Below the pieces are notes generated by a model that ran no database searches, was not told the origin of the DNA, and saw nothing but the letters and a program-made list of their open reading frames with translations. From contig JACRLN010000024.1 of NCBI GenBank assembly GCA_016215115.1, positions 35,337 through 99,336 of the forward strand: a DNA stretch of 64,000 nt. The letters run 5' to 3'. The DNA comes from Nitrospirota bacterium (GTDB lineage: Bacteria; Nitrospirota; Thermodesulfovibrionia; UBA6902). Both the position numbers and the translations under genes were made by a program. Positions 296 to 49,460 of this stretch are shown one piece after another (positions within the stretch are counted from its first letter, which is position 1; each line of letters starts with the position of its first letter).

Positions 296-342
296 ACTTA
301 TTCCTGATTAATATCATCCCTTATTTAGCAATGCTGAGTTTC

Positions 343-419: not shown

Positions 420-427
420 ATAATAAT

Positions 428-709
428 ATGATCGTCGGTCTCCTTACTTTGGATTTACATATACAAGAGTCCCATTCCCTGAAGGAGAAACGCTTCGTTA
501 TAAAAAGCTTAATAGACAGGATAAAAAACAAATTCAATGTCTCTGTAGCAGAAGTTGACGCCAATGATCTCTGGCAGCGAAGCGTTATCGGAATAGCTTA
601 TGTCTCAAATGAGACAGTAATGATAAACAAGGTCTTTGAGCAGATTAAAAACCTGGTTGTCAGCATCCATTCGGTAGAATTGATCAATGCCAACATGGAA
701 CTGCTGTGA
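428..709 (+). CDS. DUF503 (YlxP-like) small protein
   Basis: The ORF-track start at 392 lies inside the family A repeat, so the ATG at 428 (MIVGLLTLDL) is more plausible. The position immediately after infB is typical for DUF503. Confidence 0.65.
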   Translation: MIVGLLTLDLHIQESHSLKEKRFVIKSLIDRIKNKFNVSVAEVDANDLWQRSVIGIAYVSNETVMINKVFEQIKNLVVSIHSVELINANMELL

Positions 710-26522: not shown

Positions 26523-27632
26523 ATGTGCAGGCTTGCTGCTATAACATCATTTGAATATTTTTCACCGATAGAAAATATCATGGCCCTTGAAACCATGAAG
26601 GAAGGGCATGACGGTTCCGGCATGGGGCTTATCCTGAAAAGGCTCGGCGGTGAATTTGAGGACCTGAAAGACTATCCAATCCTGTCCGGCATTTGCTCTA
26701 AAGACGGGATGAAGACCCTTGATGATTACATGAACAAGCTCGGGTTCAAACTGAAGTACACCTGGACCCCCAAGATCAGAACTGTCAGAGGGATCACAGG
26801 CCGGGACCATTATTTTGCGCGGGTCTATGATTATCCCGACGTCTACAAAGACAGGGCTTGGGGCGACAAGGAAGACCTGCTCCTGAAGACTAGACTGGCC
26901 CTCAGGAAATTCGGGGAAGGCGATGAGTCAATCATTGTATTTTCTTTCTACCCGGATATACTTACGCTGAAAGAGGTCGGCGACCCTCTGCAGCTTGCGG
27001 AGTTTTTCGGCCTTGATAAATCCCCGCTCAAAGCAAAGATTATCTTTGCCCAGGGAAGACAGAATACCAATTATGCCATCAATATGTATGCATGTCATCC
27101 TTTTTTTATTCAGGGTTACGGTTCGATGACAAACGGAGAGAATACTGCGTTTGTGCCTATAAGAGAATTTTTAATGAGCAGGAATTTCCCCGGCTATATC
27201 GGCTATAACAGCGACAGCGAGGTGTTCTGTCATATTCTTCACTACACCTGCAAGCAGTTAGCTTATCCGCTTACGTACTATAAAGACGTAATCACACCGC
27301 TAAAACAGTCGGAAATCGACAAAAGGACTGACAGCGAGGTTGCAAGATTGTTGAAGATATCGCTAAGGCCGCTTTGCATAGACGGCCCCAATTGTGTTAT
27401 TGCATTTACTCCCGACGGGACCTGCCTTATGGTTCAGGATGCCAAGAAACTCAGGCCGGGCATTGTCGGCGGCATGAAGGGCAAATACGGATTCATGTCC
27501 GAGGAGTGCGGGCTTGACAGCGTAATACCTGAGAGAGATAAATCTCAGGACGTATTCCCCATGAAATACGACATGGTTATTGTCAAGCCGGACGCACAGG
27601 AGGTGATGGTATGGAACCAGCTTCACGGTTAG
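26523..27632 (+). CDS. glutamate synthase, glutamine amidotransferase subunit (archaeal-type GltB domain 1, class II Ntn amidotransferase)
   Basis: Begins Met-Cys (MCRLAAI), the nucleophile Cys of class II amidotransferases. 369 aa, followed by the FMN and GXGXG subunits. Confidence 0.75.
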   Translation: MCRLAAITSFEYFSPIENIMALETMKEGHDGSGMGLILKRLGGEFEDLKDYPILSGICSKDGMKTLDDYMNKLGFKLKYTWTPKIRTVRGITGRDHYFARVYDYPDVYKDRAWGDKEDLLLKTRLALRKFGEGDESIIVFSFYPDILTLKEVGDPLQLAEFFGLDKSPLKAKIIFAQGRQNTNYAINMYACHPFFIQGYGSMTNGENTAFVPIREFLMSRNFPGYIGYNSDSEVFCHILHYTCKQLAYPLTYYKDVITPLKQSEIDKRTDSEVARLLKISLRPLCIDGPNCVIAFTPDGTCLMVQDAKKLRPGIVGGMKGKYGFMSEECGLDSVIPERDKSQDVFPMKYDMVIVKPDAQEVMVWNQLHG

Positions 27633-29272: not shown

Positions 29273-29316
29273 AGATAAAACAAAGAACAAAGAACACAGA
29301 GCACAGACTAAAAACA

Positions 29317-29400
29317 TGTCATTCCCGCAGTCTGTTGAGCGGGAATCCAGAGTCTTTTTAGAGGGAACTGGATTCCGGCTTAAGGACTGCCGGAATGACA
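29317..29400. repeat. Family B double-hairpin repeat copy
   Basis: GTCATTCCCGCAGTCTGTTGAGCGGGAATCCAG ... CTGGATTCCGGCTTAAGGACTGCCGGAATGACA. About 90% identical to the reverse complement of the copy at 56866-56957. Confidence 0.8.
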
Positions 29401-29440
29401 ACTTTAATAGTATCTTCGGGACAGCGACATCAATTTAACA

Positions 29441-31774
29441 ATGAAAAAGATCACTTTAAAAGGAAACATTAACGGTAAGCGTACTCCTACCCGGATTTTC
29501 GAAGAAGAAATTCAGGACGCGGTTCGCCAGGGCGCGCGTGAACTCCAGGTTATTGCTGACGGACAACACGGCCTCGGCGGCAGGGTTTGGCCCAGAGGCG
29601 AGGTTGTAAGGATAACGGTAGAAGGCCCTGTGGGGCAGAGGCTCGGCAGCATGGGCTTTTTCGGAACCGAAATAGTGGTGAAAGGAAGCGCCTCAGACGA
29701 TGTTGGCTGGATAAACTGCGGGGCCACGATAACCGTTCTTGGTGACGTCACAAACGGCGCTCACAATGCCGCTGCACAGGGAATCCTTTATGTTCAGGGC
29801 GGAGGCGGCGCACGCTGTGACACGATGACAAAGCACAATCCCAAATTCGAACCGCCGCAGTCATGGTACTTTAGAGACGTGGGTGATACATTTGCAGAAT
29901 TCAAGGCAGGCGGAATAGCAGTTGTTTGCGGAGTAAATCCCAGAAATCCTGAAAATATTTTAGGCTACCGCCCTTGTGTCGGAATGGTGGGCGGAGTTGT
30001 ATATTTCCACGGCCCGATTCAGGGCTACAGCGAAGGCGATGTCAGGCTTCTTGAGTTGACGGACCAGGACTGGCAATGGCTCACTGAAAACATGAAGCCT
30101 TATCTTAAAGCGATAGAGCGCACTGAATACCTCGATCCCCTTATCCGCTCAAAAGATGATTGGAAAAAACTTGTCCCTTACTCAGCGCAGGAACGCGCAA
30201 AGAAGAAAGTCTTCAAGATATCCGTTACCGAGTTCCGAAACAGTATTTGGGAAACAGGAGTCGGCAAGGGCGGAATTTTTGCGGAGTATTTAAACCATCC
30301 TTTCACTGTTCTTCCGTATATCACAACCGGCAAGGACAGGAGATACAAGCCTGTATGGAATAATTTCAAGTACGCTCCACCCTGTGAATACGCGTGCCCG
30401 AGCGGAATACCCACGCAAAAACGCGCTCAGCTTATAAGGGCTGGAAAACTTCATGAGGCGTTGGAGCTCGTTCTCCAATACAGTCCGCTTCCCGCTTCAG
30501 TATGCGGAGAGATTTGTCCCAATCTCTGTATGCAGACATGCACAAGGGCGCAGGTTGACACGCCTTTCAATATCAAGGAGCTTGGCAGGGCGAGTGTTGA
30601 TTTAAAGCTCCCGAAGCGTGAGAAAAAGACAAATAAAAAGGTTGCGATTATCGGCGGCGGCCCCGGCGGATTATCTGCCGCATGGCAGCTTGCGCTGAAA
30701 GGGCATAACATTGACCTTTACGAGGCAGCGGAAAAGCTCGGAGGCAAACTCGAACTCTGCATCCCGCGAGAGAGGCTGCCCCGGAAGGTGCTCAGGAAAG
30801 AACTATCACGGTTTGAAGAAATCGGCGTGAAAGTCCATCTGAAGGCAGCAGTGAATAAAAAGAAGTTTGAGGATATATACAAAAAGCATGATGCAGTTGT
30901 TGTCGCCTGCGGAGCGCACAAACCGAGGATGATGAATATCCCCGGCGCAAATGATACGGTTTCCGCATATGACTTTTTGAAAGGAATAAATACCGGCGCT
31001 GCCCCGAAATTGAAAGACAAGAGAGTGGTCGTCATCGGCGCGGGAAATGTCGGCATGGACGTTGCAGCTCAAGCCTTCCACTGCGGCGCAAAAGAGGTAA
31101 CCGCAGTTGATATTCAGAAACCTGCTGCATTCGGCAAAGAGCTTGAGATCGCCCAGGCGCTTGGAACAAAAATCCTCTGGCCGAAATTCACCGGGAAATA
31201 CGTTAAGAAGGAAAAGAAGATTTTCTTCACCGACGGCTCATCGCTTGACGCAGATGTTGTCGTTGTATCCATAGGCGATACGCCGATGACGGAATTCCTT
31301 CCTCCATCAGTTCATACAAACAAACAGGGCTGGATAGAGGCAGACGAAGTCGGGCACACATCCGACCCGAAGGTCTATGCAATCGGCGACGCTACAAAGC
31401 CTGGACTTGTCACTCATGCAATCGGCCACGGCAGAAAGGCGGCGGACGCCGTTCACGCCCTGCTTACGGGAAGGTCTTATTACATGCCCGCCAAAAGACC
31501 GATGGTCCCGTATGACAAGATAAAAACCTCCTATTACGACATCTGCAAAGGCGAACCCTTCAAGCCGGATACAGAGGCAAACCGCTGCATGTCCTGCGCC
31601 GTATGCAGGGACTGCCACATGTGCGAGGCGACCTGCTATTACGGAGCGATCACCAGGAAGGATAATCCTGACGGCTCATATGAATACGTGGTTGACGAAA
31701 ACCTCTGCATCGGATGCAGCTTCTGCGCGGGAATCTGCCCCTGCGGCGTGTGGGAGATGGTGGAGAATATTTAA
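29441..31774 (+). CDS. glutamate synthase GXGXG domain (GltB domain 3) fused to a GltD-like NAD(P)H oxidoreductase subunit with a C-terminal ferredoxin
   Basis: N-terminal GXGXG repeats (GQHGLGG, GFFGTE, YVQGGGGARCDTM). Central 4Fe-4S (CPSGIP, CGEICPNLCMQTC) and a Rossmann FAD/NAD site (VAIIGGGPGGLSAAWQLA, VVIGAGNVGMD). C-terminal CIGCSFCAGICPCG. Confidence 0.8.
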   Translation: MKKITLKGNINGKRTPTRIFEEEIQDAVRQGARELQVIADGQHGLGGRVWPRGEVVRITVEGPVGQRLGSMGFFGTEIVVKGSASDDVGWINCGATITVLGDVTNGAHNAAAQGILYVQGGGGARCDTMTKHNPKFEPPQSWYFRDVGDTFAEFKAGGIAVVCGVNPRNPENILGYRPCVGMVGGVVYFHGPIQGYSEGDVRLLELTDQDWQWLTENMKPYLKAIERTEYLDPLIRSKDDWKKLVPYSAQERAKKKVFKISVTEFRNSIWETGVGKGGIFAEYLNHPFTVLPYITTGKDRRYKPVWNNFKYAPPCEYACPSGIPTQKRAQLIRAGKLHEALELVLQYSPLPASVCGEICPNLCMQTCTRAQVDTPFNIKELGRASVDLKLPKREKKTNKKVAIIGGGPGGLSAAWQLALKGHNIDLYEAAEKLGGKLELCIPRERLPRKVLRKELSRFEEIGVKVHLKAAVNKKKFEDIYKKHDAVVVACGAHKPRMMNIPGANDTVSAYDFLKGINTGAAPKLKDKRVVVIGAGNVGMDVAAQAFHCGAKEVTAVDIQKPAAFGKELEIAQALGTKILWPKFTGKYVKKEKKIFFTDGSSLDADVVVVSIGDTPMTEFLPPSVHTNKQGWIEADEVGHTSDPKVYAIGDATKPGLVTHAIGHGRKAADAVHALLTGRSYYMPAKRPMVPYDKIKTSYYDICKGEPFKPDTEANRCMSCAVCRDCHMCEATCYYGAITRKDNPDGSYEYVVDENLCIGCSFCAGICPCGVWEMVENI

Positions 31775-32013: not shown

Positions 32014-33585
32014 ATGAAGCTGCGCTATAAAATAATAGGCATATGCATGGTCTTCTCCTTAATTGCCGGTATTACTATATTCTTCAGTATTGACACAATC
32101 ATTTCTTTGAAAGATAATTTTTCGAGGGTTACAGATGAAACAATGCCGGTTATCAAAAGCCTCGAGGATTTAAGGTTCGCAGCTCTCAGGATAGTCTCTT
32201 CTACACATGAATTTGGCCTTATCATCGCAGAAACGAAAACAGCTGATAAAGCTGAAAAAAATCAGGAACGGAAAGAAGAGAATCATATAAAATCTGCAAA
32301 AGAACTATATGAAAACGCCCTTAAGAGGTATGAATATTTAACAAATATGAATTCTCCGGGAAAAAGAGATCATGTGAAAAACGTGCATGAAGCGGGACAG
32401 CATTTTCTACAACTGAGCGAACAATTCATAGAAATGAAAGAACATGGTTCTGCCGGTTTAGAAATCCTTGAGATAATGAAACAATTTGAAAATGCAAAAA
32501 TATTTTTCCTGAATACAATAAACATGCACCTCGATCAGGAAGGAAAAGAGCTTCAGGAACGAAGAGCGAAAGTTGCATCCATGTATGGGAATGCGATTAA
32601 AACAATATTTATTGTGAGTGGGACCACATTTTTCATGGCCCTGATAAGCAGCTTAATAATGTCAGTGTTCATCACGCGTCCGATTGAGAAATTAAAGCTT
32701 GCTGCTGCCATGATAGGACAGGGCGCTTTAGACACTAAGGTAGATATAAGATCTAATGACGAGATTGGAGAACTGGCAAGGTCTTTTAACAAAATGACCT
32801 GTGACTTGAAAAAATCACGCGATGAATTATCTTCAACAACCGAAAGGCTAAAACAGAGCAACAAAGAACTTCATGAATTTCTTTTCATCGCTTCGCATGA
32901 TCTTCAGGAGCCCTTACGGAAAGTCATGGTATTCGGAGATCGGTTGAAGGACACCGACTCAGAAATTCTCAGCGAAAAGGGACGGGATTATATTGAGCGA
33001 ATGCAGAATACAACAAGGAGAATGCAGGTACTTATCAATGACCTCCTGTCATTTGCAAGAGTAAGCATTAATACCAAACCCTTTATCCCGGTTGATCTTT
33101 CCATGGTAGCTAAAAATGTGACAACTGATATAAAAGCTCTTATTAAACAAACAGGAGGGAGTGTTGAAGTCAAAGAACTGGCTGCGTTGGATGCTAACCC
33201 TGTCCAGATGCATCAACTGTTTTTTAACATTATTGACAATGCTTTAAAATTCCGTAAAAAGAACGAACCACCTGTCGTTACAGTGCAAGGCGCATATATT
33301 CCAAAAAATGGAGCTGACCAAAGCAGCAGTTCTAACGAATGCGGATTATACCAAATCACAATTGAAGACAACGGCATAGGCTTTGATGAAAAGTATGCAG
33401 AACGCATCTTCAGGGTTTTTCAGAGACTGCATGCCAGAAATGAGTATTCAGGGACCGGTATCGGTCTTTCAGTCTGCAAAAAGATTGTAGAGCGCCATGG
33501 CGGAAGTATTTCGGCGAAAAGTGCGCCTGGCGATGGCACGAAATTAATTGTAACCTTACCAGTCAAACAGAGTAATGGGGGATAA
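32014..33585 (+). CDS. membrane sensor histidine kinase (2 TM, HAMP, HisKA, HATPase_c)
   Basis: H-box ASHDLQEPLRKV, plus N/G boxes (DNGIGFDEKYAERIF, GTGIGLSVCKK). Confidence 0.8.
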   Translation: MKLRYKIIGICMVFSLIAGITIFFSIDTIISLKDNFSRVTDETMPVIKSLEDLRFAALRIVSSTHEFGLIIAETKTADKAEKNQERKEENHIKSAKELYENALKRYEYLTNMNSPGKRDHVKNVHEAGQHFLQLSEQFIEMKEHGSAGLEILEIMKQFENAKIFFLNTINMHLDQEGKELQERRAKVASMYGNAIKTIFIVSGTTFFMALISSLIMSVFITRPIEKLKLAAAMIGQGALDTKVDIRSNDEIGELARSFNKMTCDLKKSRDELSSTTERLKQSNKELHEFLFIASHDLQEPLRKVMVFGDRLKDTDSEILSEKGRDYIERMQNTTRRMQVLINDLLSFARVSINTKPFIPVDLSMVAKNVTTDIKALIKQTGGSVEVKELAALDANPVQMHQLFFNIIDNALKFRKKNEPPVVTVQGAYIPKNGADQSSSSNECGLYQITIEDNGIGFDEKYAERIFRVFQRLHARNEYSGTGIGLSVCKKIVERHGGSISAKSAPGDGTKLIVTLPVKQSNGG

Positions 33586-33617
33586 CATATGACTAATTAT
33601 AAGGATAGAGGCATTGA

Positions 33618-35054
33618 ATGTTTAAATCAATAAAACTAAAGATACTTGCCGCGCAAATTGTTATGAGCCTGCTTACGGCTCTTACGATAACCATCTTCAG
33701 AAATGCTGCAATTATTTTCCTCATAGTACTTGGCATAAGCATTATAATCTCCCGGAAACTGTCTTATAGCATAACGGCACCGATTATCAAACTCTCCAGG
33801 ACGACTCAGGGCGATTTTTTACAAAAAGTGCATATCGACTCAAATGATGAAATCGGCTTCCTTGCTGCCTCTATCAACCGGTTGATGGAAACTCTCCAGA
33901 AAACAATGAGGTCCTGCGAGGCATTTCAGGAACAAAGTGAATTCCTCAAGCATGTTGTCAATTCAATCCCCTATCCTTTTATTGTCTTAAATGCTGCAGA
34001 CTTCTCTGTTAAACTGGCAAACTCAGCCGCTTCACAATCAGGAGACTTCAAAAACATGCCCTGTTATGAAATAGCTAAACTGTCTGACATGCCATGCGTA
34101 GGCCATGAGCACAAGTGTTGTCTCGAATCAATAAAAGAGACTAAAGAACCGGTAATCATAGAGTGTCTGCATCATGATAAAGATGACAATAACAGATATT
34201 ACAGAATCCATGCTCATCCGATTTTTAATGACGGGGGGGACGTTACAGAGATAATCGAGTACTCAATTGATGTTACTGAAAGCAAGCGTGCAGAGATTGA
34301 TATCATAATGTATGCGGAAAAACTTAGGATAAGCAACAGGGAATTTCAGGAATTTTCCTATGTGGCCTCCCATGACCTTCAGGAGCCCTTACGGAAAGTG
34401 ACAGCTTTTGGTGACCGCCTGAAAGCCACATGTGGAGATGCTCTCGGGGAGAAAGGCAGTGATTACCTTGAGAGAATGCTGAACTCCGCAAAACGAATGC
34501 AGAACCTGATAAACGGTTTATTGGCTTTTTGCCATGTTACAACAAAGGCCCAGCCTCTTGTTCACGTGGACCTCTCCGTAATAACAAAAGAGGTTCTATC
34601 TGATCTCGAAGTGCGTATCGAACAGACTGGCGGACGGGTTGAAGTCGGAGATCTCCCCACACTGAATGCAGATCCGCTTCAGATGAGGCAATTATTACAG
34701 AACCTTATTGGTAATTCCCTTAAATTCCACAAAAAGGACGAACCTCCTGTTGTCAAAATTTCAGGATCTTTTATAAACAGTAATGGAAATAATCCAACTA
34801 TTGGACTTGATGACGGGAAACCCTATCAGATCATGGTTACAGACAACGGCATAGGATTTGATGAAAAATATGCAGAGCGTATATTTGGCGTATTTCAGAG
34901 GCTGCATGGCAGACAGGAGTATGAAGGAACCGGCATCGGTCTCTCTGTTTGCAAAAAAATTGTCGAAAGACACGGCGGAACCATAACTGCAAAAAGTACC
35001 CCGGGAGAAGGAACAACATTTATAGTGACGCTCCCTGTAAAGCAGTCAAATTGA
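33618..35054 (+). CDS. sensor histidine kinase (TM, HAMP, Cys-containing PAS, HisKA, HATPase_c); paralog of the upstream kinase
   Basis: H-box ASHDLQEPLRKV. The C-terminal 230 aa are near-collinear with the 32014 kinase. The PAS region carries PCYEIAKLSDMPCVGHEHKCC. Confidence 0.8.
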   Translation: MFKSIKLKILAAQIVMSLLTALTITIFRNAAIIFLIVLGISIIISRKLSYSITAPIIKLSRTTQGDFLQKVHIDSNDEIGFLAASINRLMETLQKTMRSCEAFQEQSEFLKHVVNSIPYPFIVLNAADFSVKLANSAASQSGDFKNMPCYEIAKLSDMPCVGHEHKCCLESIKETKEPVIIECLHHDKDDNNRYYRIHAHPIFNDGGDVTEIIEYSIDVTESKRAEIDIIMYAEKLRISNREFQEFSYVASHDLQEPLRKVTAFGDRLKATCGDALGEKGSDYLERMLNSAKRMQNLINGLLAFCHVTTKAQPLVHVDLSVITKEVLSDLEVRIEQTGGRVEVGDLPTLNADPLQMRQLLQNLIGNSLKFHKKDEPPVVKISGSFINSNGNNPTIGLDDGKPYQIMVTDNGIGFDEKYAERIFGVFQRLHGRQEYEGTGIGLSVCKKIVERHGGTITAKSTPGEGTTFIVTLPVKQSN

Positions 35055-35170: not shown

Positions 35171-36961
35171 ATGACTGACAAAGTAATAAAAATACTGCTG
35201 GTGGACGACGATGAGGATGATTATATCATGACCCGGGACCTGCTTTCCGGGGTCGAAGGCACACACTACGAATTGCAGTGGATTAAAACCTATGACAGCG
35301 CCGTTGAAATTATTGATCAGAAAAATCATGATGTTTATCTTTTTGATTATCACCTTGGCGAACACACTGGACTGGAGCTCCTGCTTCAGGTAATCAAAAA
35401 TGGATGCAGGGCGCCGATTATCATGCTGACCGGCCAGGGGGACAAGGAATTAGACATGCAGGCAATGAAAACAGGCGCAGCAGATTACCTTGTGAAAGGA
35501 CACATCAATTCCCCGCTGCTGGAACGGTCTATCAGGTATGCCATTGAACGAAAGCGCTCAGAAGAAGATATATACCGGATGGCATATTATGACATCCTGA
35601 CCAATCTCCCGAACCGTCTTCTTTTCAGGGACCGACTGAAACAGGCGATCGGCCTTGCCGAACGTTATAACAGGCTGGGTGCGGTAATGTTTCTTGATCT
35701 CGACAACTTCAAGCGTATCAACGATACCTTTGGCCACTATACAGGTGACCAGCTATTAAAAAGTACCGCTGAACGTCTAAAAAACTGTATGCGCAAATGC
35801 GACTCCCTGTCCCGGCAAAACGTTGATGATTCGGTCGACACAATTGCCCGTCTGGGCGGTGATGAATTTACAATAATACTTACAGAGATCAAGCACATCG
35901 AAGATTCTGCAAAAGTAGCACAGCGGATTCTCGGCAGCCTGTCAGAGCAGTTTGTGCTGAACGACCATGAAATATTTATAAGCGCAAGTGTCGGCATAGC
36001 CATATATCCGCATGATGGAAAAGATATTGACAGCATTCTAAAAAACGCAGATGCGGCGATGTATCATGCAAAGGCAGAGGGGAAAAATAATTACCAGTAT
36101 TACAAACAGTCCATGAACGCTTCCGCACTTGAAAAACTTACGATGGAAAATGACCTTCGGAAGGCGCTTGAACGGAAAGAGTTTACTCTCTATTATCAGC
36201 CACAGATTGATATCGCAAAGCGTAAAATAGTCGGGCTGGAAGCGCTGATAAGATGGCACAGGACAGACAAGACAGTAGTTTTACCTGCAGATTTTATTCC
36301 ACTGGCCGAAGAAACCGGCTTAATAATTCCAATAAGCAATTGGGTAATACATACGGCCTGTGAGCAAAATAAGGCGTGGCAGGCTGCCGGTTTTTCAAAT
36401 ATTCCCATATCAGTCAACATTTCCAATCTGCAGTTTCAGCAAAAAAATTTCGTAAATACTATTGTTCAGGTTTTGAGAGATACCGGCCTGCGCCCGGGAA
36501 ATATCATACTGGAAATTACCGAAAGCACAATTATGCATAATGCAGATATGGTATTTGCAACATTATATGAACTGTCTTGCATGGGATTACGGCTCACAAT
36601 TGATGATTTCGGAACCGGTTATTCGTCCCTGAGCTATCTGAAACGCATTCCTCTTTATTCCATAAAGATCGACCGTTCTTTTATAAAGGAACTACCTGAC
36701 AGTCCTGATGATGCAGCAATTTCAAAGGCGATCATTTCGATGGCGCATTCTCTGAAACTAAGAGTTGTTGCAGAAGGCGTTGAAACAGAACAGCAACTGG
36801 CATTTTTATCTAAACAGGGATGCGACGAGTTTCAGGGATTTCTTTTCAGCCGTCCCTTGCCTGCAGACGAGATTTTTAAATTATTGACCGGGGAAAGAAA
36901 TGGTGCGGGCCTCATGTTGTCATCTTTGCACAAAATATCGGAACCCGTGCAGAAGACTTAA
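35171..36961 (+). CDS. response regulator with REC-GGDEF-EAL domains
   Basis: REC (ILLVDDDEDD ... phospho-Asp region), GGDEF (RLGGDEFTII) and EAL (LEALIRW ... conserved downstream motifs). Confidence 0.85.
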   Translation: MTDKVIKILLVDDDEDDYIMTRDLLSGVEGTHYELQWIKTYDSAVEIIDQKNHDVYLFDYHLGEHTGLELLLQVIKNGCRAPIIMLTGQGDKELDMQAMKTGAADYLVKGHINSPLLERSIRYAIERKRSEEDIYRMAYYDILTNLPNRLLFRDRLKQAIGLAERYNRLGAVMFLDLDNFKRINDTFGHYTGDQLLKSTAERLKNCMRKCDSLSRQNVDDSVDTIARLGGDEFTIILTEIKHIEDSAKVAQRILGSLSEQFVLNDHEIFISASVGIAIYPHDGKDIDSILKNADAAMYHAKAEGKNNYQYYKQSMNASALEKLTMENDLRKALERKEFTLYYQPQIDIAKRKIVGLEALIRWHRTDKTVVLPADFIPLAEETGLIIPISNWVIHTACEQNKAWQAAGFSNIPISVNISNLQFQQKNFVNTIVQVLRDTGLRPGNIILEITESTIMHNADMVFATLYELSCMGLRLTIDDFGTGYSSLSYLKRIPLYSIKIDRSFIKELPDSPDDAAISKAIISMAHSLKLRVVAEGVETEQQLAFLSKQGCDEFQGFLFSRPLPADEIFKLLTGERNGAGLMLSSLHKISEPVQKT

Positions 36962-36999
36962 AAAACAGAAATCAAAATTATATAAGGAGGCAGAATCAA

Positions 37000-37446
37000 A
37001 TGGAAAAAGACCCCAAATCTATAACAATTCTCATGGCTGATGACGATGAGGATGACCGTCTTATGGCGGAAGAGGCGCTGAAAGAAGCTAAACTGTTAAA
37101 TCCCGTACGCTTTGTTAAAGATGGTGAGGAACTGCTTGATTATCTATATCAACGCGGCGAGTATTCAAACGGAAATAGCGCTCCCCGTCCCGGATTAATC
37201 CTGCTTGATTTGAATATGCCAAGAAAAGACGGCCGTGAGGCGCTCATGGAAATCAAGCAAGACCCTGAACTGAAGCAAATACCAATTGTAGTGCTGACAA
37301 CATCAGTGTCTGAAGAAGATATTTATCGTACTTACGATCTCGGCGTAAATTCATACATTACAAAGCCGGTCGCCTTCGAGGGATTGGTGGAGGTAATGAA
37401 AAACCTGGCAAACTACTGGTTTAATATTGTAAAACTGCCATCTTAA
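37000..37446 (+). CDS. stand-alone CheY-like response regulator receiver
   Basis: ILMADDDEDD ... LILLDLNMPRKDG ... K. Confidence 0.8.
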   Translation: MEKDPKSITILMADDDEDDRLMAEEALKEAKLLNPVRFVKDGEELLDYLYQRGEYSNGNSAPRPGLILLDLNMPRKDGREALMEIKQDPELKQIPIVVLTTSVSEEDIYRTYDLGVNSYITKPVAFEGLVEVMKNLANYWFNIVKLPS

Positions 37447-37460
37447 GGCAGAGGCATGAA

Positions 37461-37540
37461 ATAGAAGAAGTTGAGAAAATTGGAAGATGAGAAGTTGTGC
37501 CCTTTTGCCTTCATAATTTCCGGACATTCCCTTAAGCTTT
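37461..37540. repeat. Family D element (AGAAGAAGTTGAGAAAATTGGAAGATGAGAAGTTG ... inverted CTTTTGCCTTCATAATTTCCGGACATTCCCTTAAGC)
   Basis: Seen directly, 3' of the REC gene. Confidence 0.6.
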
Positions 37541-37643
37541 AACATATTTAATCCGATATAAATAAACGAGAGGAGAGCGCTCGTTTTTCAGCGTGTATAA
37601 TGCATGTGCAGTCTGAAAAAAGTACATATTAAGTGGTAAAAAA

Positions 37644-38576
37644 ATGGCAAAGAAATATTTATTAACTCTGATATGCCTCCTTGTTATTGGAGCATCAGGT
37701 TGCAGCAGAAACGACGATGTTAAAAAAATAAACCTTTCTGAAAAGATAGACGTAAAAAATACCGGGAAGCAATCAGAAAAAAGTCCTGTCCGCATCGCAG
37801 TCGGGGGTATGACTACTCCCAGGGCAGGATTTGTTTATTATAAACAGCTTCTGAATTATATAGGTGAAAAACTCGGAAGAAAAGTAGAATTTGTTGACAG
37901 GGAAGACTATGCGGCAATCAACAACATGCTGCAAAACAGGGAGATTGACGTGGCCTTTGTATGCGGCGGTCCGTATGTTGACGGACATGAAGAGTTCGGG
38001 CTTGAACTTTTAGCCGCTCCTGTGGCCTACGGCGGGACAGTATATTACTCATATATTATAGTGCCGAAAGACAGTCCTGTTAAGAATTTTAAAGAGCTGC
38101 GCGGTAAGACCTTTGCCTTTTCCGATCCTTTGTCCAACAGCGGGAAATTAATCCCCACATATATGCTGGCCAAAATGAATGAGACGCCGGAGAGTTTTTT
38201 TAAAAGTTTTTATTATACACATGCCCATGACAAATCCATAAAGGCTGTGGCCACCGGGGTCGTGGACGGAGCCGCTGTTGACAGCCTTATATGGGAATAT
38301 GCAAATCATACGAATCCCGAGTTTACATCAAAGACAAAGATAATTGAGAAGTCTTCACCGCATGGAATTCCGCCAGTTGTAATTCGTCACGGAATGGACC
38401 TTGAATTAAAAGAAAGACTGCGGCAGATTTTTTTGAACGCCCATAATGACAAAAAAGGGCAGGAGATTCTCAAGGGGATGATGATAGAAAAATTTGTCCC
38501 GATAGATAATAAAGCGTATGATTCTATAAGGGAAATGAAGCAATGGGTGGATAAACAAACAGCAGGAAAGAAATGA
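37644..38576 (+). CDS. periplasmic substrate-binding lipoprotein, PhnD/SsuA-like (PBP2 fold)
   Basis: Lipobox LLVIGASGC. PhnD-like binding-domain core (RIAVGGMTTPRAGFVYYKQL ... DVAFVCGGPYV). Its stop overlaps the start of the downstream kinase (ATGA). Confidence 0.65.
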   Translation: MAKKYLLTLICLLVIGASGCSRNDDVKKINLSEKIDVKNTGKQSEKSPVRIAVGGMTTPRAGFVYYKQLLNYIGEKLGRKVEFVDREDYAAINNMLQNREIDVAFVCGGPYVDGHEEFGLELLAAPVAYGGTVYYSYIIVPKDSPVKNFKELRGKTFAFSDPLSNSGKLIPTYMLAKMNETPESFFKSFYYTHAHDKSIKAVATGVVDGAAVDSLIWEYANHTNPEFTSKTKIIEKSSPHGIPPVVIRHGMDLELKERLRQIFLNAHNDKKGQEILKGMMIEKFVPIDNKAYDSIREMKQWVDKQTAGKK

Positions 38577-41296
38577 AACTACGCAGTAAAATCCTCTTAC
38601 ACACTGTCGGGTTAATTGTGTTTCTGGGACTGACAGTGATCGTTTTTTTAAAAACCACATTCACCCGGACTCTCATGTGCGAATTTAAGGAAAACAGCAT
38701 TTTTCAAACTCAACAATTGGCAAATTTGATTATCAACGATTTGCTGACAGAGAGCAAACTTAGACTACAGTTACTGCTTGATGACTACAAAAGAGAAGAT
38801 GCACATATTCAATATATTTTCATTATGAATGCAAACAAGAAACTGGTAGTTCATACTTTCAAACAGGGATTCCCTGCAGCTCTTTTAACCCTCAATAACT
38901 CCAACATTAAAGAAGGATATCATATCGAACACGTTGTCACAGAAGACGACGATATCTTTGATGTTGCTGCGCCTGTATTGGGAAGTGAAGCGGGAATACT
39001 ACATATTGGTTTTACAGAAGAACCGCTCCACGAAAAGGTTAACGAAATTGTTGCGTTAATTATCGGGATAATAACTGTTGTGTTAGCTTTAGGCGGCACA
39101 GGAGCGTTTGTTTTCGCCTCCAGGATTACAAGACCTCTCTATGACCTCTCAGAAGTGGCAAAAGATATCGGCAGCGGCAACTTGGACCGCAAAGCAGTGG
39201 TCAGAACAAAAGATGAAATTGGACAGCTTGGAACGACCTTCAATAAAATGATGAGGGATTTGAAAGGCACCACTGTATCGCTGGACACGCTGCAGAAAGA
39301 AAGAGATAGGGCGCAAAACTACCTGGATGTAGCAGGCGTCATGCTTATTGCGCTTAATACAAAGGGAAATGTCACACTGATAAATAAAAAAGGCTGTGAG
39401 CTTTTAGGGTATGAAGAACATGAAATTATAGGTAAAAACTGGTTTGACAATTTTATCCATGATAGCCTGAGAGAAGAGACAAAGACTGTCTTTACCGGTC
39501 TTATGGATGGAAGGATTGAGGCTAATAAACAATATGAAAATTCTGTATTAACCCGGAACGGTGAAATAAAAATTATAGAATGGAGAAATACCGTTCTAAC
39601 CGACACAACAGGAAAGATCATAGGCACTCTCAGTTCAGGAGAGGATATAACAAGAAGAAAAGAAGCGGAGAAGGAAGCGTATGAAAGCCGTCAGATGATT
39701 ATAAAAGAGCACGAAGAGTTAAATACAGTCTTTCATAAAATAGAAATTGCAAAGAAAGAATGGGAAAAAACCATAGACTGTATAGGTGACATGATAATGA
39801 TTACTGACAACAGGGGCAAAATAAAGAGGGTTAACCGCGTAGTTAAAGATTTTGTAGAAAAACCCTATCCTGAGATTCTCGGTAAAAACTGGGAAGAAAT
39901 AATAAAAGAAAAGGGACTGGAAAGCCGCACATTTTATGCCGGGGGAGTGGAATTGTATCAAGAATCTACCGGGAATTGGTTCCAACTTAACTCATATCCT
40001 TTCAACTCCGAGGATGTTGGATATTCAGGGACGGTCATAACACTTCACAACACTACAGAATTAAAGCAGATTACGGCAAAGCTTGAGGAGACTACAAAAG
40101 AGATTAACGAAGAGAGGGAAAAACTCTCGATGGCTCTTGAACGTATTTCCAGTCTTATTCAAAATGTCACCCATCAGAAGCAGTATGAAATGGCTCTTGA
40201 TAACCCATATTTAACGACATGCTATGAATTGAAGAATTGCAAAAAGGAAGATTGTCCCTCCTACGGCAAGGGGGCGACAAGATGCTGGCAGACAGCAGGG
40301 ACTTTCTGCGGCGGAAAGGTGGAGGGGGCATTTGCCCAAAAATACAAAAACTGTACAGAATGTAATGTGTTCAAGGCCGCAACATCAAACCCTATTCACC
40401 AGATAGGGGAACAGTTCAACAACATGATGCATGTGCTTGAAGCGAAAAACAGGGAACTTGAGAACGCCTATGCAGAGCTCAAGGAGACTCAGGCGCAGAT
40501 ACTGCAGCGTGAAAAAATGGCTTCAATCGGGCAGCTTGCCGCCGGGGTCGCGCATGAGATTAATAATCCCATGGGGTTTATCTCAAGCAATCTCGCCACT
40601 CTTGGGAAATACGTAAATAAACTAACCGATTTTATCAATACACAAAGTGTGATTATCGAATCTCTTAAATCAGCAGAGGCGTCAGAAAGCCTGAAAGAAC
40701 TTAAAAAAAAGCTTAAGCTCGATTATATCTTTGAAGACATCGGGCAGTTGATAAAAGAATCTCTTGAGGGGGCGGAGAGGGTGAAGAAGATTGTGCAGAA
40801 CCTCAAGAGTTTCTCAAGGGTGGACGAGGCGGAATACAAATTTACAGATATCAACGAATGCATTGAGAGTACGTTAAATATTGTATGGAACGAATTGAAA
40901 TATAAAGCAACGGTGACAAAAGAATACGGAGAACTGCCGCAGATTAAATGCTACCCCCAGCAGATTAACCAGGTCTTTATGAACCTCTTTATCAATGCGG
41001 TTCAGGCTATTGAAAAACAGGGCGAGATAAAGATAAAGACCTGGAACGGCAACGGGCTGATCAATATATCAGTATCAGATACAGGAAACGGAATTCCCCA
41101 GGACAAGCTCAGCAGGATATTTGAGCCGTTCTTTACAACAAAACCGGTGGGGCATGGGACCGGGCTTGGATTGAGCATAACCTACGACATAGTAAAGAAG
41201 CATAAGGGAGAAATTACAGTCGAGAGCGAAGTGGGCCGGGGAACTACTTTTACAGTAAAACTCCCGATCGCTGAGGAGGAAAATAAAAATGGATGA
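38573..41296 (+). CDS. multidomain sensor histidine kinase (periplasmic sensor, HAMP, 2-3 PAS, 7-Cys module, HisKA, HATPase_c)
   Basis: TM1, a periplasmic domain of about 140 aa, TM2, HAMP, PAS repeats, the Cys-rich segment CYELKNCKKEDCPSYGKGATRCWQTAGTFCGG ... CTEC, an H-box (AAGVAHEINNP) and the ATPase G-boxes (GHGTGLGLSI). Confidence 0.8.
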   Translation: MKLRSKILLHTVGLIVFLGLTVIVFLKTTFTRTLMCEFKENSIFQTQQLANLIINDLLTESKLRLQLLLDDYKREDAHIQYIFIMNANKKLVVHTFKQGFPAALLTLNNSNIKEGYHIEHVVTEDDDIFDVAAPVLGSEAGILHIGFTEEPLHEKVNEIVALIIGIITVVLALGGTGAFVFASRITRPLYDLSEVAKDIGSGNLDRKAVVRTKDEIGQLGTTFNKMMRDLKGTTVSLDTLQKERDRAQNYLDVAGVMLIALNTKGNVTLINKKGCELLGYEEHEIIGKNWFDNFIHDSLREETKTVFTGLMDGRIEANKQYENSVLTRNGEIKIIEWRNTVLTDTTGKIIGTLSSGEDITRRKEAEKEAYESRQMIIKEHEELNTVFHKIEIAKKEWEKTIDCIGDMIMITDNRGKIKRVNRVVKDFVEKPYPEILGKNWEEIIKEKGLESRTFYAGGVELYQESTGNWFQLNSYPFNSEDVGYSGTVITLHNTTELKQITAKLEETTKEINEEREKLSMALERISSLIQNVTHQKQYEMALDNPYLTTCYELKNCKKEDCPSYGKGATRCWQTAGTFCGGKVEGAFAQKYKNCTECNVFKAATSNPIHQIGEQFNNMMHVLEAKNRELENAYAELKETQAQILQREKMASIGQLAAGVAHEINNPMGFISSNLATLGKYVNKLTDFINTQSVIIESLKSAEASESLKELKKKLKLDYIFEDIGQLIKESLEGAERVKKIVQNLKSFSRVDEAEYKFTDINECIESTLNIVWNELKYKATVTKEYGELPQIKCYPQQINQVFMNLFINAVQAIEKQGEIKIKTWNGNGLINISVSDTGNGIPQDKLSRIFEPFFTTKPVGHGTGLGLSITYDIVKKHKGEITVESEVGRGTTFTVKLPIAEEENKNG

Positions 41297-42131
41297 GCAG
41301 GTAAGAATTTTATGCGTAGATGACGAGGAAAATGTCCTAAGGTCCCTGAAAAGACTTTTCCTGGACAGCGAATACGAGATCCATATCGCAGCCTCGGGGG
41401 ACGAAGGACTTGAAATCCTCAGAAAAACAGAACCGGTTCAGATAATCATTTCCGATTACAGAATGCCAAAAATGAACGGAGTGGATTTCCTGAAGGAGGT
41501 GTACAGGCACTGGCCCGATACAATCAGGATAGTCCTCTCAGGTTATGCTGATACAGCGTCTATAGTCGAAGCAATAAATGTAGGACATATTTACAAGTTT
41601 ATCCCCAAGCCGTGGAATGACGCTGAACTAAAGGTTGCAATATCCAATGCCCTGGACCGCTATTTTATAAAGCAGAAGAATATTCAGCTCACAAAGGAAC
41701 TGGAAGCAAAAAACAGGGAGCTTCAGGAAATCAACAATAATCTTGAAGTGCTTGTTACAGAGAGGACCGCTGATCTAATGATGCAGAATAAAATACTGAA
41801 CTGCTCCCAGAATATCCTTGACTCGCTTCCTGTTGCCGTTATAGGCATAGACCCGGAAGGGCAAATAGTACAATGTAACAAATTAGGGCTGGAATTTTTC
41901 AGCAGTGAAAAGGGATATATCATGGGAAGGGACAGATGGGATTCATTGCCTGATGAAATAAATACCTTTATTGAAGACGTCACTGAAAAAGGAGCCCTTT
42001 CTGCAAATATACCCAGGAATGGCGCTGACATCAGGATCAAAGGGGTTCACATGAAATACTCCAATGGACAGGAGGGGATCATCCTGATTTTTGACAGAAA
42101 CCGGGTAAATGTTAATGGAAACTGCAAATGA
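41289..42131 (+). CDS. response regulator, REC + C-terminal PAS-like domain
   Basis: REC (ILCVDDEENV ... IIISDYRMPKMNG). The C-terminal roughly 130 aa are PAS-like. Confidence 0.7.
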   Translation: MDEQVRILCVDDEENVLRSLKRLFLDSEYEIHIAASGDEGLEILRKTEPVQIIISDYRMPKMNGVDFLKEVYRHWPDTIRIVLSGYADTASIVEAINVGHIYKFIPKPWNDAELKVAISNALDRYFIKQKNIQLTKELEAKNRELQEINNNLEVLVTERTADLMMQNKILNCSQNILDSLPVAVIGIDPEGQIVQCNKLGLEFFSSEKGYIMGRDRWDSLPDEINTFIEDVTEKGALSANIPRNGADIRIKGVHMKYSNGQEGIILIFDRNRVNVNGNCK

Positions 42132-43449
42132 AATAAAATCTGAAACTCCGGTAGAAATACTCTTTGTCGATGACGAGAAGAACGTACTGCAGTCGCTCAA
42201 GCGGTTGTGCATAGAAGATGATTATTCCGTTATATTGGCAAATTCAGGAGAAGAGGCGCTGGAGATATTGAAAAACAATTCAAATATAGGACTTATAGTC
42301 TCGGACCAGAGGATGCCGGCTATGACAGGCTCCGAATTTCTTGAAAAAGCAAAAGAGATGCTGCCTGATACCATCAGGATTCTGCTCACCGGTTACGCAG
42401 ATATCAACGCAGTCGCTGATGCCATAAATAAAGGCGGCGCCTACAGATATATAACAAAACCCTGGAATGACGAGGAACTCATTCAGATTATAGGAGACGC
42501 TGTCAGGAGATATTCACTCATAAAGGAAAACAAGAGATTACAGGAAATTATCAGAAAACAGAACGAGGAACTTAAAAGATGGAATTCCCAGCTTGAGTTT
42601 TTTGTACAGGAACAGACAATCGAGATACAAAACAAAAATAAGGAACTCGAAAAATTCAATGAGAACCTGAAGAAAAATTTTAAAAACTCTATTTTTGCCT
42701 TTTCAAGCCTCATTGAACTTCGGGACAAAAAAACTGCAAACCATTCAAAAAACGTTGCAGAGCTTTCAGTAAAAACAGCGAGAGCCATGAACTTATCAGG
42801 CAAAGAGATAGAAACTATTACCGTTGCAGCGCTTCTTCATGACATAGGGAAGATCGGCATCCCTGATGCACTGCTCTTGAGGGAAGAAGATGAGATGGAC
42901 AAGGAAGCCCTGCGCGAATATATGCGGCATCCAGTGAGAGGTCAGGCGGCAATTGATTCTATAGAGGACCTGAGAGAATCCGGAATTTTAATAAGACACC
43001 ACCATGAATGGTATAACGGAACGGGATTCCCCGATCAACTCTCCGGCAAGAAGATCCCTCTTGGTGCAAAGATCATTGCCATCGCTGACTTTACAGATAA
43101 AACTATAAGAAATCTGGACAGGGATAATGCCATAGAAATTAGTTTAAAAAAAGTGAAAGACAAGCTTGGTACACGGTTTGATTACGAGATATACCCGTAT
43201 ATCGAAGCATCGGTGAGAGAGGTATATTCAAAAGTCCTGCAACAGACCGGAACCAATATGGTTGAGATGGAACTCAGCGTAAACGACATAAAAGAAGGTA
43301 CGCTGCTTTCGAGAGACGTAAAAAGCGGAACCGGTCTCATCCTTTTGCCTAAAGGGACAATATTGAACTGGAGAAACATTCAGGCGCTCAGACGTTACTA
43401 TCAGCTTGATCCGTCAAATACCGGGATATTTGTGCTGGTGAAGAGGTGA
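42109..43449 (+). CDS. response regulator with an HD-GYP c-di-GMP phosphodiesterase domain
   Basis: REC (ILFVDDEKNV ... LIVSDQRMPAMTG). HD motif (LLHDIGKIGIPD) and a GYP-like motif (HHEWYNGTGFP, a GYP to GFP variant). Confidence 0.8.
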   Translation: MLMETANEIKSETPVEILFVDDEKNVLQSLKRLCIEDDYSVILANSGEEALEILKNNSNIGLIVSDQRMPAMTGSEFLEKAKEMLPDTIRILLTGYADINAVADAINKGGAYRYITKPWNDEELIQIIGDAVRRYSLIKENKRLQEIIRKQNEELKRWNSQLEFFVQEQTIEIQNKNKELEKFNENLKKNFKNSIFAFSSLIELRDKKTANHSKNVAELSVKTARAMNLSGKEIETITVAALLHDIGKIGIPDALLLREEDEMDKEALREYMRHPVRGQAAIDSIEDLRESGILIRHHHEWYNGTGFPDQLSGKKIPLGAKIIAIADFTDKTIRNLDRDNAIEISLKKVKDKLGTRFDYEIYPYIEASVREVYSKVLQQTGTNMVEMELSVNDIKEGTLLSRDVKSGTGLILLPKGTILNWRNIQALRRYYQLDPSNTGIFVLVKR

Positions 43450-43470
43450 ATTTATGAAGGAGGATAAGAC

Positions 43471-44040
43471 ATGGAAGATTCCATACTAATAGTTGATGAC
43501 GACCCTAATGTAATATCGGCGATCAGTAGGTCATTAATGGAAGAACCATACAGTATCTATGCGGCAAATAGCGGCGTTGAGGGTCTCAACATACTAAAAG
43601 GACATAAAATTAAGCTTGTGATCTCTGATGAAATGATGCCGGGGATGTCAGGGACTGAATTTCTGTCAGCAGTAAAAAATATATTTCCTGAAACCATCAG
43701 GATTATGTTAACAGGACATGCAAGCATTCAGGCGGCTATGAAAGCTGTCAACAGCGGCGAGATTTACAGATTTTTTTCAAAACCCTGGGATGATATTGAA
43801 CTGAAGCTTTCCATTCGCTCTGCCATTGAAAAGTATAATCTTGAGGAGGAGAACAGAAGTCTTCTTAAGACTGTAAAGCGTCAGGCGTCAGAGCTAAAAC
43901 AGCTTGAAAAGATGCATCCCGGAATTACAAGCCTGAAAAAAGACACTGAGGGGCACTTTATTCTTCCTGAAATATCAGACACTGACGAAGACATTTCTGA
44001 AATAATAGCACAGTCCAAAATTAAAAAAGATTCTGCTTAA
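43471..44040 (+). CDS. CheY-like response regulator receiver with a C-terminal extension
   Basis: ILIVDDDPNV ... LVISDEMMPGMSG ... K, then an acidic tail of about 60 aa. Confidence 0.7.
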   Translation: MEDSILIVDDDPNVISAISRSLMEEPYSIYAANSGVEGLNILKGHKIKLVISDEMMPGMSGTEFLSAVKNIFPETIRIMLTGHASIQAAMKAVNSGEIYRFFSKPWDDIELKLSIRSAIEKYNLEEENRSLLKTVKRQASELKQLEKMHPGITSLKKDTEGHFILPEISDTDEDISEIIAQSKIKKDSA

Positions 44041-47455: not shown

Positions 47456-47850
47456 ATCTCATTCTCCTTTGGTGGGATATGGCACGACCAGCAGTAAGGT
47501 TTTACATTTGCATAGTTGTGGCACTTGTCACAGAATTCCTTTTTGTTGGAATGACAGTGCATGCATGTATTCTGAAGGCTCATTATATATTTTTTTCCGC
47601 CCGTGCTTTCGTATACCAAATTTCCTTCGCGTATAACCAGATCTCTCCAGTTATCCAAAAGCTGCATGTGGTTGGCCCTCATATATTCTTTTGATTCCAC
47701 ACAGCGTTTTTCGACTAACTGTTTAATCACAGGGGTATCGAGTTTTGGTTCAGGCATGGCAGATGTTTTCCCCATGTTATAAAAAATGGGGAATGTAAAC
47801 AGACCGACAAATATGATAAGCCCTGCTATTATCTTTCCTCCGTTATACAT
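47452..47850 (-). CDS. dsrJ: DsrJ, membrane-anchored triheme cytochrome c
   Basis: N-terminal signal/anchor helix and three CxxCH motifs (CMHCH, CDKCH, CWSCH). 132 aa. Confidence 0.8.
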   Translation of the reverse strand: MYNGGKIIAGLIIFVGLFTFPIFYNMGKTSAMPEPKLDTPVIKQLVEKRCVESKEYMRANHMQLLDNWRDLVIREGNLVYESTGGKKYIMSLQNTCMHCHSNKKEFCDKCHNYANVKPYCWSCHIPPKENEI

Positions 47851-49460
47851 TATTCATTGCCCTCCATTCCGGGAAGAGGATCTCCTCGCAGATCTGTGGT
47901 CCTCTCTTTCTCGCCCTTCATAATCATTGCATTTGCTACGAGTTCGTGAACTCCCGTAACTTTTACGCCGGGGACCCAGTAATCCATCGAGGCCGTCAGC
48001 ACCGCCCTGTCGATCGCGCAGATATTTGCGAGCATATTGACGCCATATTTTTCCGCAACGTCTTTTACGGCATTGGCCCTTGGCAATCCCCCTCTCATTC
48101 TGATCTCCATGTTCTCACCTGCGTTCAGTCCTGAACCGCTTCCGCAGCAGAATGTCTTCTCTCTGGTTGTGAGCTCGTCCATTTCGTAGAAATGATTGCA
48201 TACGTTATTGATAATGTAACGGGGTTCTTCAAAGAGTCCCATGCCTCTTGCGGTATTGCAGGAATCATGGAAAGTCACCTTCAGGTTATCATTGCGTTTC
48301 GGGTCCAGTTTCAGTTTCCCGTTTTTAATAAGGTCCGCTGTAAATTCGGCAACGTGCACCATCTTGGTTGATTTTGTATTCTCAAATACCGTGCCGGTTA
48401 TTGGAGACTTCGGCACTTCAAGGAAATCTGCCGGGCCGTTCCATGTATCCATGTACTGGTTGAGGACCCTCCACATATGGCCGCATTCTCCGCCTAATAT
48501 CCACTTTACGCCGAGCCTCCTGGCTTCGGCATATATTTTAGTGTTCAACCGTTTTGCCAGCTCATTGGAAGTAAAGAACCCGAAGTTCCCGCCTTCCGAT
48601 GCGTATGTGCTCCATGTATAATCAAGCCCTAATTCATGGAAGAGCATAAGATATCCCATGCAGGTATAGGTCCCGGGATCCGCGAAAAGATCGCCGGAAG
48701 GTGTTACAAAAAGTATCTCGGCGCCTTTCCTGTTAAATGTCGGTTCAATCTTAATTCCGGTTACGGTTTCGATATCATCCAGCATATAACTCAGATTGCC
48801 CACAATCGTGTGGGGTTCAAGGCCGAGGTGATTGCCCTTCATATAACAATTTGCCGCAGGTCCGGATATCCAGTCAGTGTTTAAACCGAGCAGATTGAGC
48901 AGTTCCCTCCCCATCATAGTAATCTCGGCGGTATCAATCCCGTAAGGGCAAAATACCGAACAGCGGCGGCACTCGGTACACTGGAAGAAATAGTACCACC
49001 ACTCTTTAAGAACTGACAGTGTAAGCGGTCTTGCTCCGGCAATTTTTCCAAGTATCTTGCCCGCTGTTGTAAAATTGCCCCTGTAGACCGAACGGAGGAG
49101 TTCCGCCCTTAGAACCGGCATATTTTTTGGATCTCCGGAGCCGATAAAGAAGTGGCACTTATCTGCACAAGCTCCGCATCTTACACAGATATCCATGAAG
49201 ACTTTGAAAGAACGGTATTTATCAAGCCTCTCCCTCATACCCTGCAGAACTATTTCCTGCCAGTTTTCAGGCAGCTTCCAGTCCTCGTCCTGCACCCTCC
49301 ACTCTCTGGGATTCGGGAAGTGAAGTGTTTCAAGATTTTTCGGCTTTGCCCCATAGCACCAGTTGCCCTCTTTCAGTTCAGCGGGAGTGTCCATCCAGGC
49401 GCTTTGAGGCGGTGTGTAATTTATTTTGCTCAGTTCATCTGGTTTCGGTGTCTTTGCCAT
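47850..49460 (-). CDS. dsrK: DsrK, HdrD-like catalytic Fe-S subunit (CCG domains)
   Basis: N-terminal ferredoxin-like clusters (CVRCGACADKC, CTECRRCSVFCP) and a C-terminal CCG motif (FCCGSGSGLNAG). Confidence 0.85.
   Translation of the reverse strand: MAKTPKPDELSKINYTPPQSAWMDTPAELKEGNWCYGAKPKNLETLHFPNPREWRVQDEDWKLPENWQEIVLQGMRERLDKYRSFKVFMDICVRCGACADKCHFFIGSGDPKNMPVLRAELLRSVYRGNFTTAGKILGKIAGARPLTLSVLKEWWYYFFQCTECRRCSVFCPYGIDTAEITMMGRELLNLLGLNTDWISGPAANCYMKGNHLGLEPHTIVGNLSYMLDDIETVTGIKIEPTFNRKGAEILFVTPSGDLFADPGTYTCMGYLMLFHELGLDYTWSTYASEGGNFGFFTSNELAKRLNTKIYAEARRLGVKWILGGECGHMWRVLNQYMDTWNGPADFLEVPKSPITGTVFENTKSTKMVHVAEFTADLIKNGKLKLDPKRNDNLKVTFHDSCNTARGMGLFEEPRYIINNVCNHFYEMDELTTREKTFCCGSGSGLNAGENMEIRMRGGLPRANAVKDVAEKYGVNMLANICAIDRAVLTASMDYWVPGVKVTGVHELVANAMIMKGEKERTTDLRGDPLPGMEGNE

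Follow-up and report, generated by a model that had tools for sequence, protein, structure and literature searches.

NreB and FNR each carry a cytoplasmic cysteine-ligated cluster whose state controls the signalling output, NreB with four cysteines in a PAS domain arranged as CxxC-x11-CxxC and FNR with the pattern C-x2-C-x5-C plus a distant cysteine. Metal sites are also found in accessory domains of chemoreceptors, such as the His3Cys zinc site in the helical bundle of CZB and the di-iron site of hemerythrin, which DcrH carries at its C-terminus for O2 sensing. Here we describe a seven-cysteine module within a 907-residue sensor histidine kinase, encoded on a 64,000-nucleotide stretch of contig JACRLN010000024.1 from a Nitrospirota bacterium (assembly GCA_016215115.1); the whole stretch is referred to below as the window. 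Our preferred reading, which we hold to be plausible and somewhat probable, is that the module is a cytoplasmic sensor with a cysteine-ligated cofactor that gates the kinase through a helix resembling AS2 of the HAMP domain.

Compared with the systems above the module stands apart. Its likeness to NreB and FNR is one of concept only, with no sequence or profile match and a different fold context. A first-pass annotation of the window, made from its letters alone, had already set the module apart from both, and indeed their patterns are absent and no NreB or FNR family was among the Pfam and NCBIfam matches to it. Like CZB and the hemerythrin of DcrH it can occur on chemoreceptors, there as C-terminal tandem copies, but it shows no homology to either. 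By position it compares with HAMP (PF00672), which occupies the same place ahead of an S-helix and DHp domain or of GGDEF. The helix that follows the module aligns to HAMP AS2, whereas a cysteine-rich globule of 65 residues stands in for AS1 and the connector.

A conserved module of the two-CW family

The kinase has 12 cysteines (residues 36, 275, 403, 550, 556, 561, 571, 579, 594, 597, 763 and 793), seven of which fall in the 48 residues from 550 to 597 (codons 40220-40363, inside the interval 40215-40380 marked in the first-pass annotation). When 12 cysteines were placed at random in 907 residues, at least seven fell within 48 residues in 17 of 200,000 trials. The codons begin at 40220 (C550), 40238 (C556), 40253 (C561), 40283 (C571), 40307 (C579), 40352 (C594) and 40361 (C597), giving the spacing C-x5-C-x4-C-x9-C-x7-C-x14-C-x2-C, with a GG pair among the 14 residues that separate C579 from C594. 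The sequence had been quoted correctly before, with two of the intervals counted one residue too long (as x10 and x8), and the placement of the module between the PAS repeats and HisKA is borne out by our domain assignment (Table 1).

The module is already catalogued as a hidden Markov model, NCBIfam NF045718 ("two-CW domain"), and hence not a new family; in the literature searched we found no function, structure or paper on the domain. The window protein aligns to profile positions 2-78 of 80 in NF045718 with E 6.9e-9 and a score of 36.0 bits, barely over the cut-off of 35 because two of its loops are shorter, and the model matches all 46 relatives in our alignment A3. The seven cysteines are invariant columns in that alignment and pair one-to-one with those of stand-alone proteins of about 100 residues, so that on sequence grounds the module almost certainly belongs to the family. 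The second CW of the family name is present and invariant (C571-W572), and the first reads C550-Y551 in the window protein. With the top-scoring stand-alone proteins the module shares, besides the seven cysteines and the second CW, the motifs AGTxCGG and QGxFAxK and the terminal CxxC. The stand-alone form has much longer loops between the second, third and fourth cysteines and lacks the AS2-like helix, whereas in the kinase-embedded form these loops are short (x4 and x9), the first CW is often CY, and the helix is fused on.

The profile and structure searches that the first-pass annotation had recommended gave a family on the one side and no solved relative on the other. A module profile was run against 1.84 billion cluster representatives (clusters at 50% identity) and retrieved 1337 proteins at E≤1e-3, of which 390 also pass E≤1e-10. 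Their lengths range from 139 to 1358 residues, and some have two copies. A word-indexed homology search with the 100-residue module alone gave no match, and the relatives came from full-length-protein and profile searches. Conservation was then counted over 175 embedded copies. C550, C571, C594 and C597 are present in all of them, C556 and C561 in 174 and C579 in 171. W572 and T577 are likewise found in all 175 copies, and R570, G576, G585 and K590 in 167-172. Position 551, a Tyr in the window protein, holds W in 85 copies and Y in 64, the frequent W accounting for the first CW in the family name; P562 is kept in 136 copies and position 564 is Y, H or F in 174. Loss of the cysteines among orthologs, which would have spoken against a sensory module, is thus the opposite of what we found, as all seven are kept far beyond the orthologs. 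Cysteine losses in degenerate copies were too rare among the 175 to tell which cysteines group together.

In each of the fifteen closest homologs, which are 57-87% identical, the module is present and has eight cysteines. The eighth lies at position 563, where the window protein reads C561-P-S563 in place of their CxC. The Ser codon TCC differs from TGC by one base, and a real variant and an assembly error are both possible. We considered the window module as a degenerate eight-cysteine form and rejected this, position 563 being variable across the family (C in 91, A in 44, S in 23 and V in 15 copies). To judge from these alignments the seven cysteines of the window protein are the canonical set and the eighth is a lineage feature.

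A scan of GTDB genomes gave 79 loci, all of them in metagenome-assembled genomes and 58 of them labelled Nitrospirota, Nitrospirae, Nitrospira or Thermodesulfovibrio-type, although the scan patterns were derived from Nitrospirota sequences, so that the lineage proportions are biased and a bias towards anaerobes is partly built in. The remaining loci belong to Desulfobulbales, "Deltaproteobacteria", Geobacteraceae, Deferribacteres, Omnitrophota, Chloroflexi, Thermoguttaceae, Poribacteria and Schekmanbacteria or are unnamed. Nitrospirota/Thermodesulfovibrionia and Desulfobacterota-type lineages make up most of the genomes, and several genomes carry more than one copy. Record titles place many of them in groundwater, deep-mine, vent or Black Sea samples, which we take as anoxic, and the relatives of the kinase itself are labelled Thermodesulfovibrionia. 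Within the 64-kb window no second two-CW copy was found by regular expression or by the model.

Coupling to the kinase core and domain partners

From the N-terminus the kinase runs through a first transmembrane segment, sCache_3_2, a second transmembrane segment, HAMP, PAS1, PAS2, a coiled coil, the two-CW module, the AS2-like helix with S-helix and DHp, and HATPase_c. Hydrophobic stretches at about residues 6-26 and 160-180, as read from the sequence, put everything past residue 181 in the cytoplasm. In the full-length AlphaFold2 (AF2) model, built on a shallow alignment and of moderate confidence (mean pLDDT, the predicted local distance difference test, 69.5), residues 536-606 are rich in loops and include four short helices; an unbroken helix from 607 to 696, which contains the phospho-acceptor His661, follows.

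In family members the module is nearly always followed by the motif DPxxxIGExFNNMMxxLE. In 35 proteins this post-module helix is matched by a profile made from the kinase's own HAMP domain, over the AS2 part of that profile (positions about 35-58). An hhalign comparison of A3 with 48 canonical HAMP domains placed columns 75-95 on HAMP 38-58 (P 7.2e-5, 43% identity, probability 63%). In the window kinase an AS2-like amphipathic helix with the GxxFNxM core leads into the output helix. The Pfam HAMP model itself matches only residues 181-231 of the kinase and not the module, and no member of A3 matches it at E<1; the Pfam scan left residues 540-650 without any match. The earlier statement that the module is no standard PAS, GAF or HAMP feature therefore holds in that it is discrete, is neither PAS nor GAF and lacks a Pfam model, and needs amending in that the helix behind it aligns to HAMP AS2. 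Two further histidine kinases are encoded just upstream (window 32014-35054), with canonical HAMP domains and without the two-CW module.

The distance from the last cysteine of the module to the phospho-acceptor His is 55 residues in 26 cases, 57 in 8, 62 in 5 and 64 in 48, the window protein among the last, in counts that take in close orthologs. The distances form two series seven residues apart, 55/62 and 57/64. This quantised spacing, together with the continuous predicted helix, points to a rigid, register-dependent helical coupling of the module to DHp, as in the connection from HAMP or an S-helix to DHp.

The same features would be expected of a passive transmitter, and this is the alternative that survives best. 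In it zinc would do no more than fold a domain that replaces HAMP AS1 and connector, and the module would relay PAS and Cache signals while sensing nothing. The HAMP position with its AS2-like helix, the rigid heptad-quantised spacing to His661 and the PAS domains that often precede the module all fit, and small loop- and cysteine-rich domains are typically stabilised by zinc. What speaks against it is the company the module keeps. Among 74 representatives scanned for partners, HisKA with HATPase_c was found in 44, REC in 21, GGDEF in 11, HAMP in 10, PAS in about 29, and HD-GYP and RsbU_N in one each; chemoreceptors (methyl-accepting chemotaxis proteins, MCPs) and one LuxR-type HTH protein add further architectures. 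Four proteins consist of about 35 N-terminal residues, the module and GGDEF and nothing else, and two consist of the module and a kinase core alone. Of four loci inspected for stand-alone two-CW genes, three have them next to signalling genes: in one the gene lies beside a CheA/CheW/CheB cluster and a dCache-GGDEF gene, in a second beside a PilZ gene, and in a third (L082:4001-6376) directly upstream of a short LytS-type kinase of 332 residues and a LytTR regulator, where the small two-CW protein may be a separate sensor subunit.

A relay would have no role where the module is the sole domain ahead of a GGDEF or kinase core, where MCPs end in tandem copies of it that lack the AS2 helix, or where it is a stand-alone protein encoded beside signalling genes, and a pure relay is disfavoured on this account. 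Nor does the module match any zinc-ribbon or zinc-finger family or fold, and it offers seven conserved ligands rather than eight and one CxxC knuckle. We regard the structural zinc relay as unlikely. The pairing of two-CW with all major output types, and its place as the only non-output domain of some proteins, argue for an input domain, and a sensory role rather than a passive one seems to us rather likely.

Some chemoreceptors carry two tandem two-CW copies at the extreme C-terminus without a HAMP-like helix, and one of them (P0250) has an N-terminal CZB zinc-binding domain as well. In the fourth of the loci inspected for stand-alone genes, two adjacent paralogous two-CW genes (L083:180-479 and L083:505-813) have a radical-SAM gene and several Usp genes as neighbours.

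The putative cofactor and a proposed mechanism

An AF2 model of residues 530-640 from a 46-sequence alignment (mean pLDDT 85.7, pTM, the predicted template modelling score, 0.74) consists mostly of loops and short helices. Relatives in the PDB were sought with Foldseek, which gave 0 matches, and by sequence and profile searches, which were empty. A zinc ribbon, a match to which the first-pass annotation had named as refuting its reading, is not what the module resembles by sequence or fold; it matches no zinc-ribbon or classical zinc-finger family, with a single CxxC instead of two knuckles. Pfam offers a single link, to DUF2769 (PF10967), itself uncharacterised, and it stays below threshold; the matched part runs from the CP to the CxxC and makes up the C-terminal two thirds of the module. 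P0128 scores 20.3 bits, where the cut-off is 22.8, and 5 of the 46 relatives match at E<1; the window protein does not match.

The near-total invariance of the seven cysteines makes it likely that the module binds a cysteine-ligated metal or cluster, and of the claims on its chemistry this is the one we hold with good confidence. For an iron-sulfur (Fe-S) cofactor we would argue only tentatively, and judge it somewhat less probable than not being one; the choice is prompted by the seven ligands in place of eight, the single CxxC, the CP and CGG motifs and the apparently anaerobic hosts.

A metal-free thiol or disulfide switch, in which the module would change shape as some of its seven cysteines reversibly become disulfides or persulfides, as in ArcB or RegB, would account for the odd number of cysteines, for C579 being slightly less constrained and for the extra CxC of the close orthologs, and it would suit a cytoplasmic site in lineages that record titles suggest to be anaerobic. 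Seven near-invariant cysteines that go with an invariant pattern of Trp, Thr and Gly are however more in the manner of a cofactor cage than of a switch made by one or two cysteines, and the Pfam and NCBIfam scans gave no match to a thioredoxin-like or known disulfide-switch family, leaving this explanation quite improbable. Least credible is a sensor of heme or another ligand built on C561-P562 and a following Tyr or His as a heme-regulatory motif, with the other cysteines structural, since the conserved CP, the Y, H or F at position 564 and the precedent of Cys-Pro motifs in other proteins are outweighed by six further invariant cysteines left unexplained, a P562 replaced in about 20% of copies and the lack of any heme-binding family in the Pfam scan.

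Returning to the cofactor sensor, we infer its cofactor, its signal and its direction of regulation, and the mechanism we propose would run as follows. In the cytoplasm the module would fold compactly, with the seven near-invariant cysteines binding a cofactor that holds it together or forms its core. This cofactor would be one or more Fe-S clusters, possibly with a reactive thiol site in addition, a zinc site being the main alternative. Standing in place of HAMP AS1 and connector, the domain would pack on the AS2-like helix, which would continue as a coiled coil to His661. A change in the cofactor by oxidation, ligand binding or loss could then alter the packing on this helix and shift its helical register or rotation, and with it the balance of kinase and phosphatase activity at His661. 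The altered balance would lead to different phosphorylation of the three REC proteins encoded downstream, one of them an HD-GYP protein, and so probably to altered turnover of cyclic di-GMP (c-di-GMP). Being the input nearest to DHp, two-CW would be able to gate signals from further upstream, those of the two PAS domains and those of the periplasmic Cache domain and the PhnD-like protein that partners it.

Several observations weigh against this picture. The match to HAMP AS2 is modest at its probability of 63%, close orthologs enter the spacing counts, and a passive relay would fit the place between PAS and DHp as well. The most conserved stretch, 570-589, has the lowest pLDDT (61-74) in the model of residues 530-640, and the module falls below 50 in the full-length model. 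With only one CxxC and without a ferredoxin, FNR, NreB or radical-SAM pattern, Fe-S is a guess, and the anoxic provenance that would suit it is in part a product of how the genome scan was made.

If the module does act as a cysteine-ligated cofactor sensor through a HAMP-like helix, it would be a new input class for two-component and c-di-GMP signalling and would open a way to study redox or sulfide sensing in these subsurface lineages. Its reach is wide, the 1337 clusters spanning all main bacterial signalling outputs. We speculate, well short of expecting it, that two-CW represents a new class of cytoplasmic Fe-S (or metal or thiol) sensor domain of uncultured, apparently anaerobic lineages, in effect a cofactor-gated HAMP whose cluster-binding globule replaces AS1 and drives the AS2-like helix. 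It would have been reused in more than 1000 clusters for kinases, c-di-GMP enzymes, chemoreceptors, transcription factors and a stand-alone adaptor, and would sense redox state, O2, nitric oxide or sulfide. The kinase module is a clean candidate for a new sensor class, of moderate interest only, with a signal that we infer.

Gene neighbourhood and probable output

The kinase sequence is identical to NCBI MBI5098876.1, from a Nitrospirota metagenome-assembled genome, where it is annotated only as "PAS domain S-box protein", a label that masks a second and better-conserved input domain. The features of the kinase and its neighbours are collected in Table 1.

Table 1. Features of the two-CW kinase and adjoining genes in window coordinates (all on the + strand where a strand is given; residues are those of the kinase; aa, amino acids)
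Feature	Residues	Position	Strand	Basis or remark
PhnD-like periplasmic binding protein		37644..38576	+	Pfam Phosphonate-bd, E 5e-62
Sensor histidine kinase, 907 aa		38573..41296	+	Open reading frame list, Pfam scan, full-length AF2 secondary structure
sCache_3_2, periplasmic	40-160			Pfam
HAMP	181-231			Pfam
PAS1	251-364			Pfam
PAS2, PAS-like fold	about 403-493			Full-length AF2 secondary structure
Helix/coiled coil joining PAS2 to two-CW, ending with conserved NPxL lead-in	495-535	40055..40177	+	AF2, family consensus
Two-CW domain	542-606	40196..40390	+	NCBIfam NF045718
Ser563 (codon TCC)	563	40259..40261	+	Cys in 15/15 closest orthologs
HAMP-AS2-like amphipathic helix, PIHQIGEQFNNMMHVLEAKN	607-626	40391..40450	+	HAMP profile, hhalign
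S-helix and DHp/HisKA		40451..40825	+	AF2 secondary structure; Pfam HisKA 653-751
Phospho-acceptor His661	661	40553-40555 (codon)	+	Within predicted helix 607-696
HATPase_c catalytic domain	795-900	40955..41272	+	Pfam, E 4.8e-27
REC-PAS response regulator		41289..42131	+	Pfam; start overlaps end of kinase gene
REC-HD-GYP (HD_5) response regulator		42109..43449	+	Pfam; overlaps REC-PAS gene
Single-domain REC response regulator		43471..44040	+	Pfam; conserved downstream

The kinase gene is part of a signalling island on one strand (window 35171-44040) that encodes, in order, REC-GGDEF-EAL, REC, PhnD-like, kinase, REC-PAS, REC-HD-GYP and REC proteins with several start/stop overlaps. The translational coupling to the PhnD-like gene suggested by the first-pass annotation would fit the junction, where the stop of that gene and the start of the kinase overlap as ATGA, and 5-6 related loci have a PhnD-like gene ahead of their orthologous kinase gene. 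The two potential inputs read from this coupling are an undercount, a periplasmic sCache and two PAS domains being present as well.

At least 12 Nitrospirota loci keep the order kinase, REC-PAS, REC-HD-GYP; fewer of them also have the final REC gene, and the N-terminal sensor part of the kinase varies among loci with the conserved gene order. The REC-HD-GYP protein is 54-91% identical and in the same downstream position in the 14 best-matching related loci and is likely a c-di-GMP phosphodiesterase output. With downstream REC genes that include HD-GYP, the kinase system therefore probably feeds c-di-GMP turnover. Elsewhere in the window a HAMP-GGDEF-EAL protein is encoded at 12835-14652, and genes of anaerobic type lie at 10212-11390, 23031-25007 (- strand), 27611-31774 and 47850-49460 (- strand), which encode a PFOR subunit, FeoB and several 4Fe-4S dicluster oxidoreductases.

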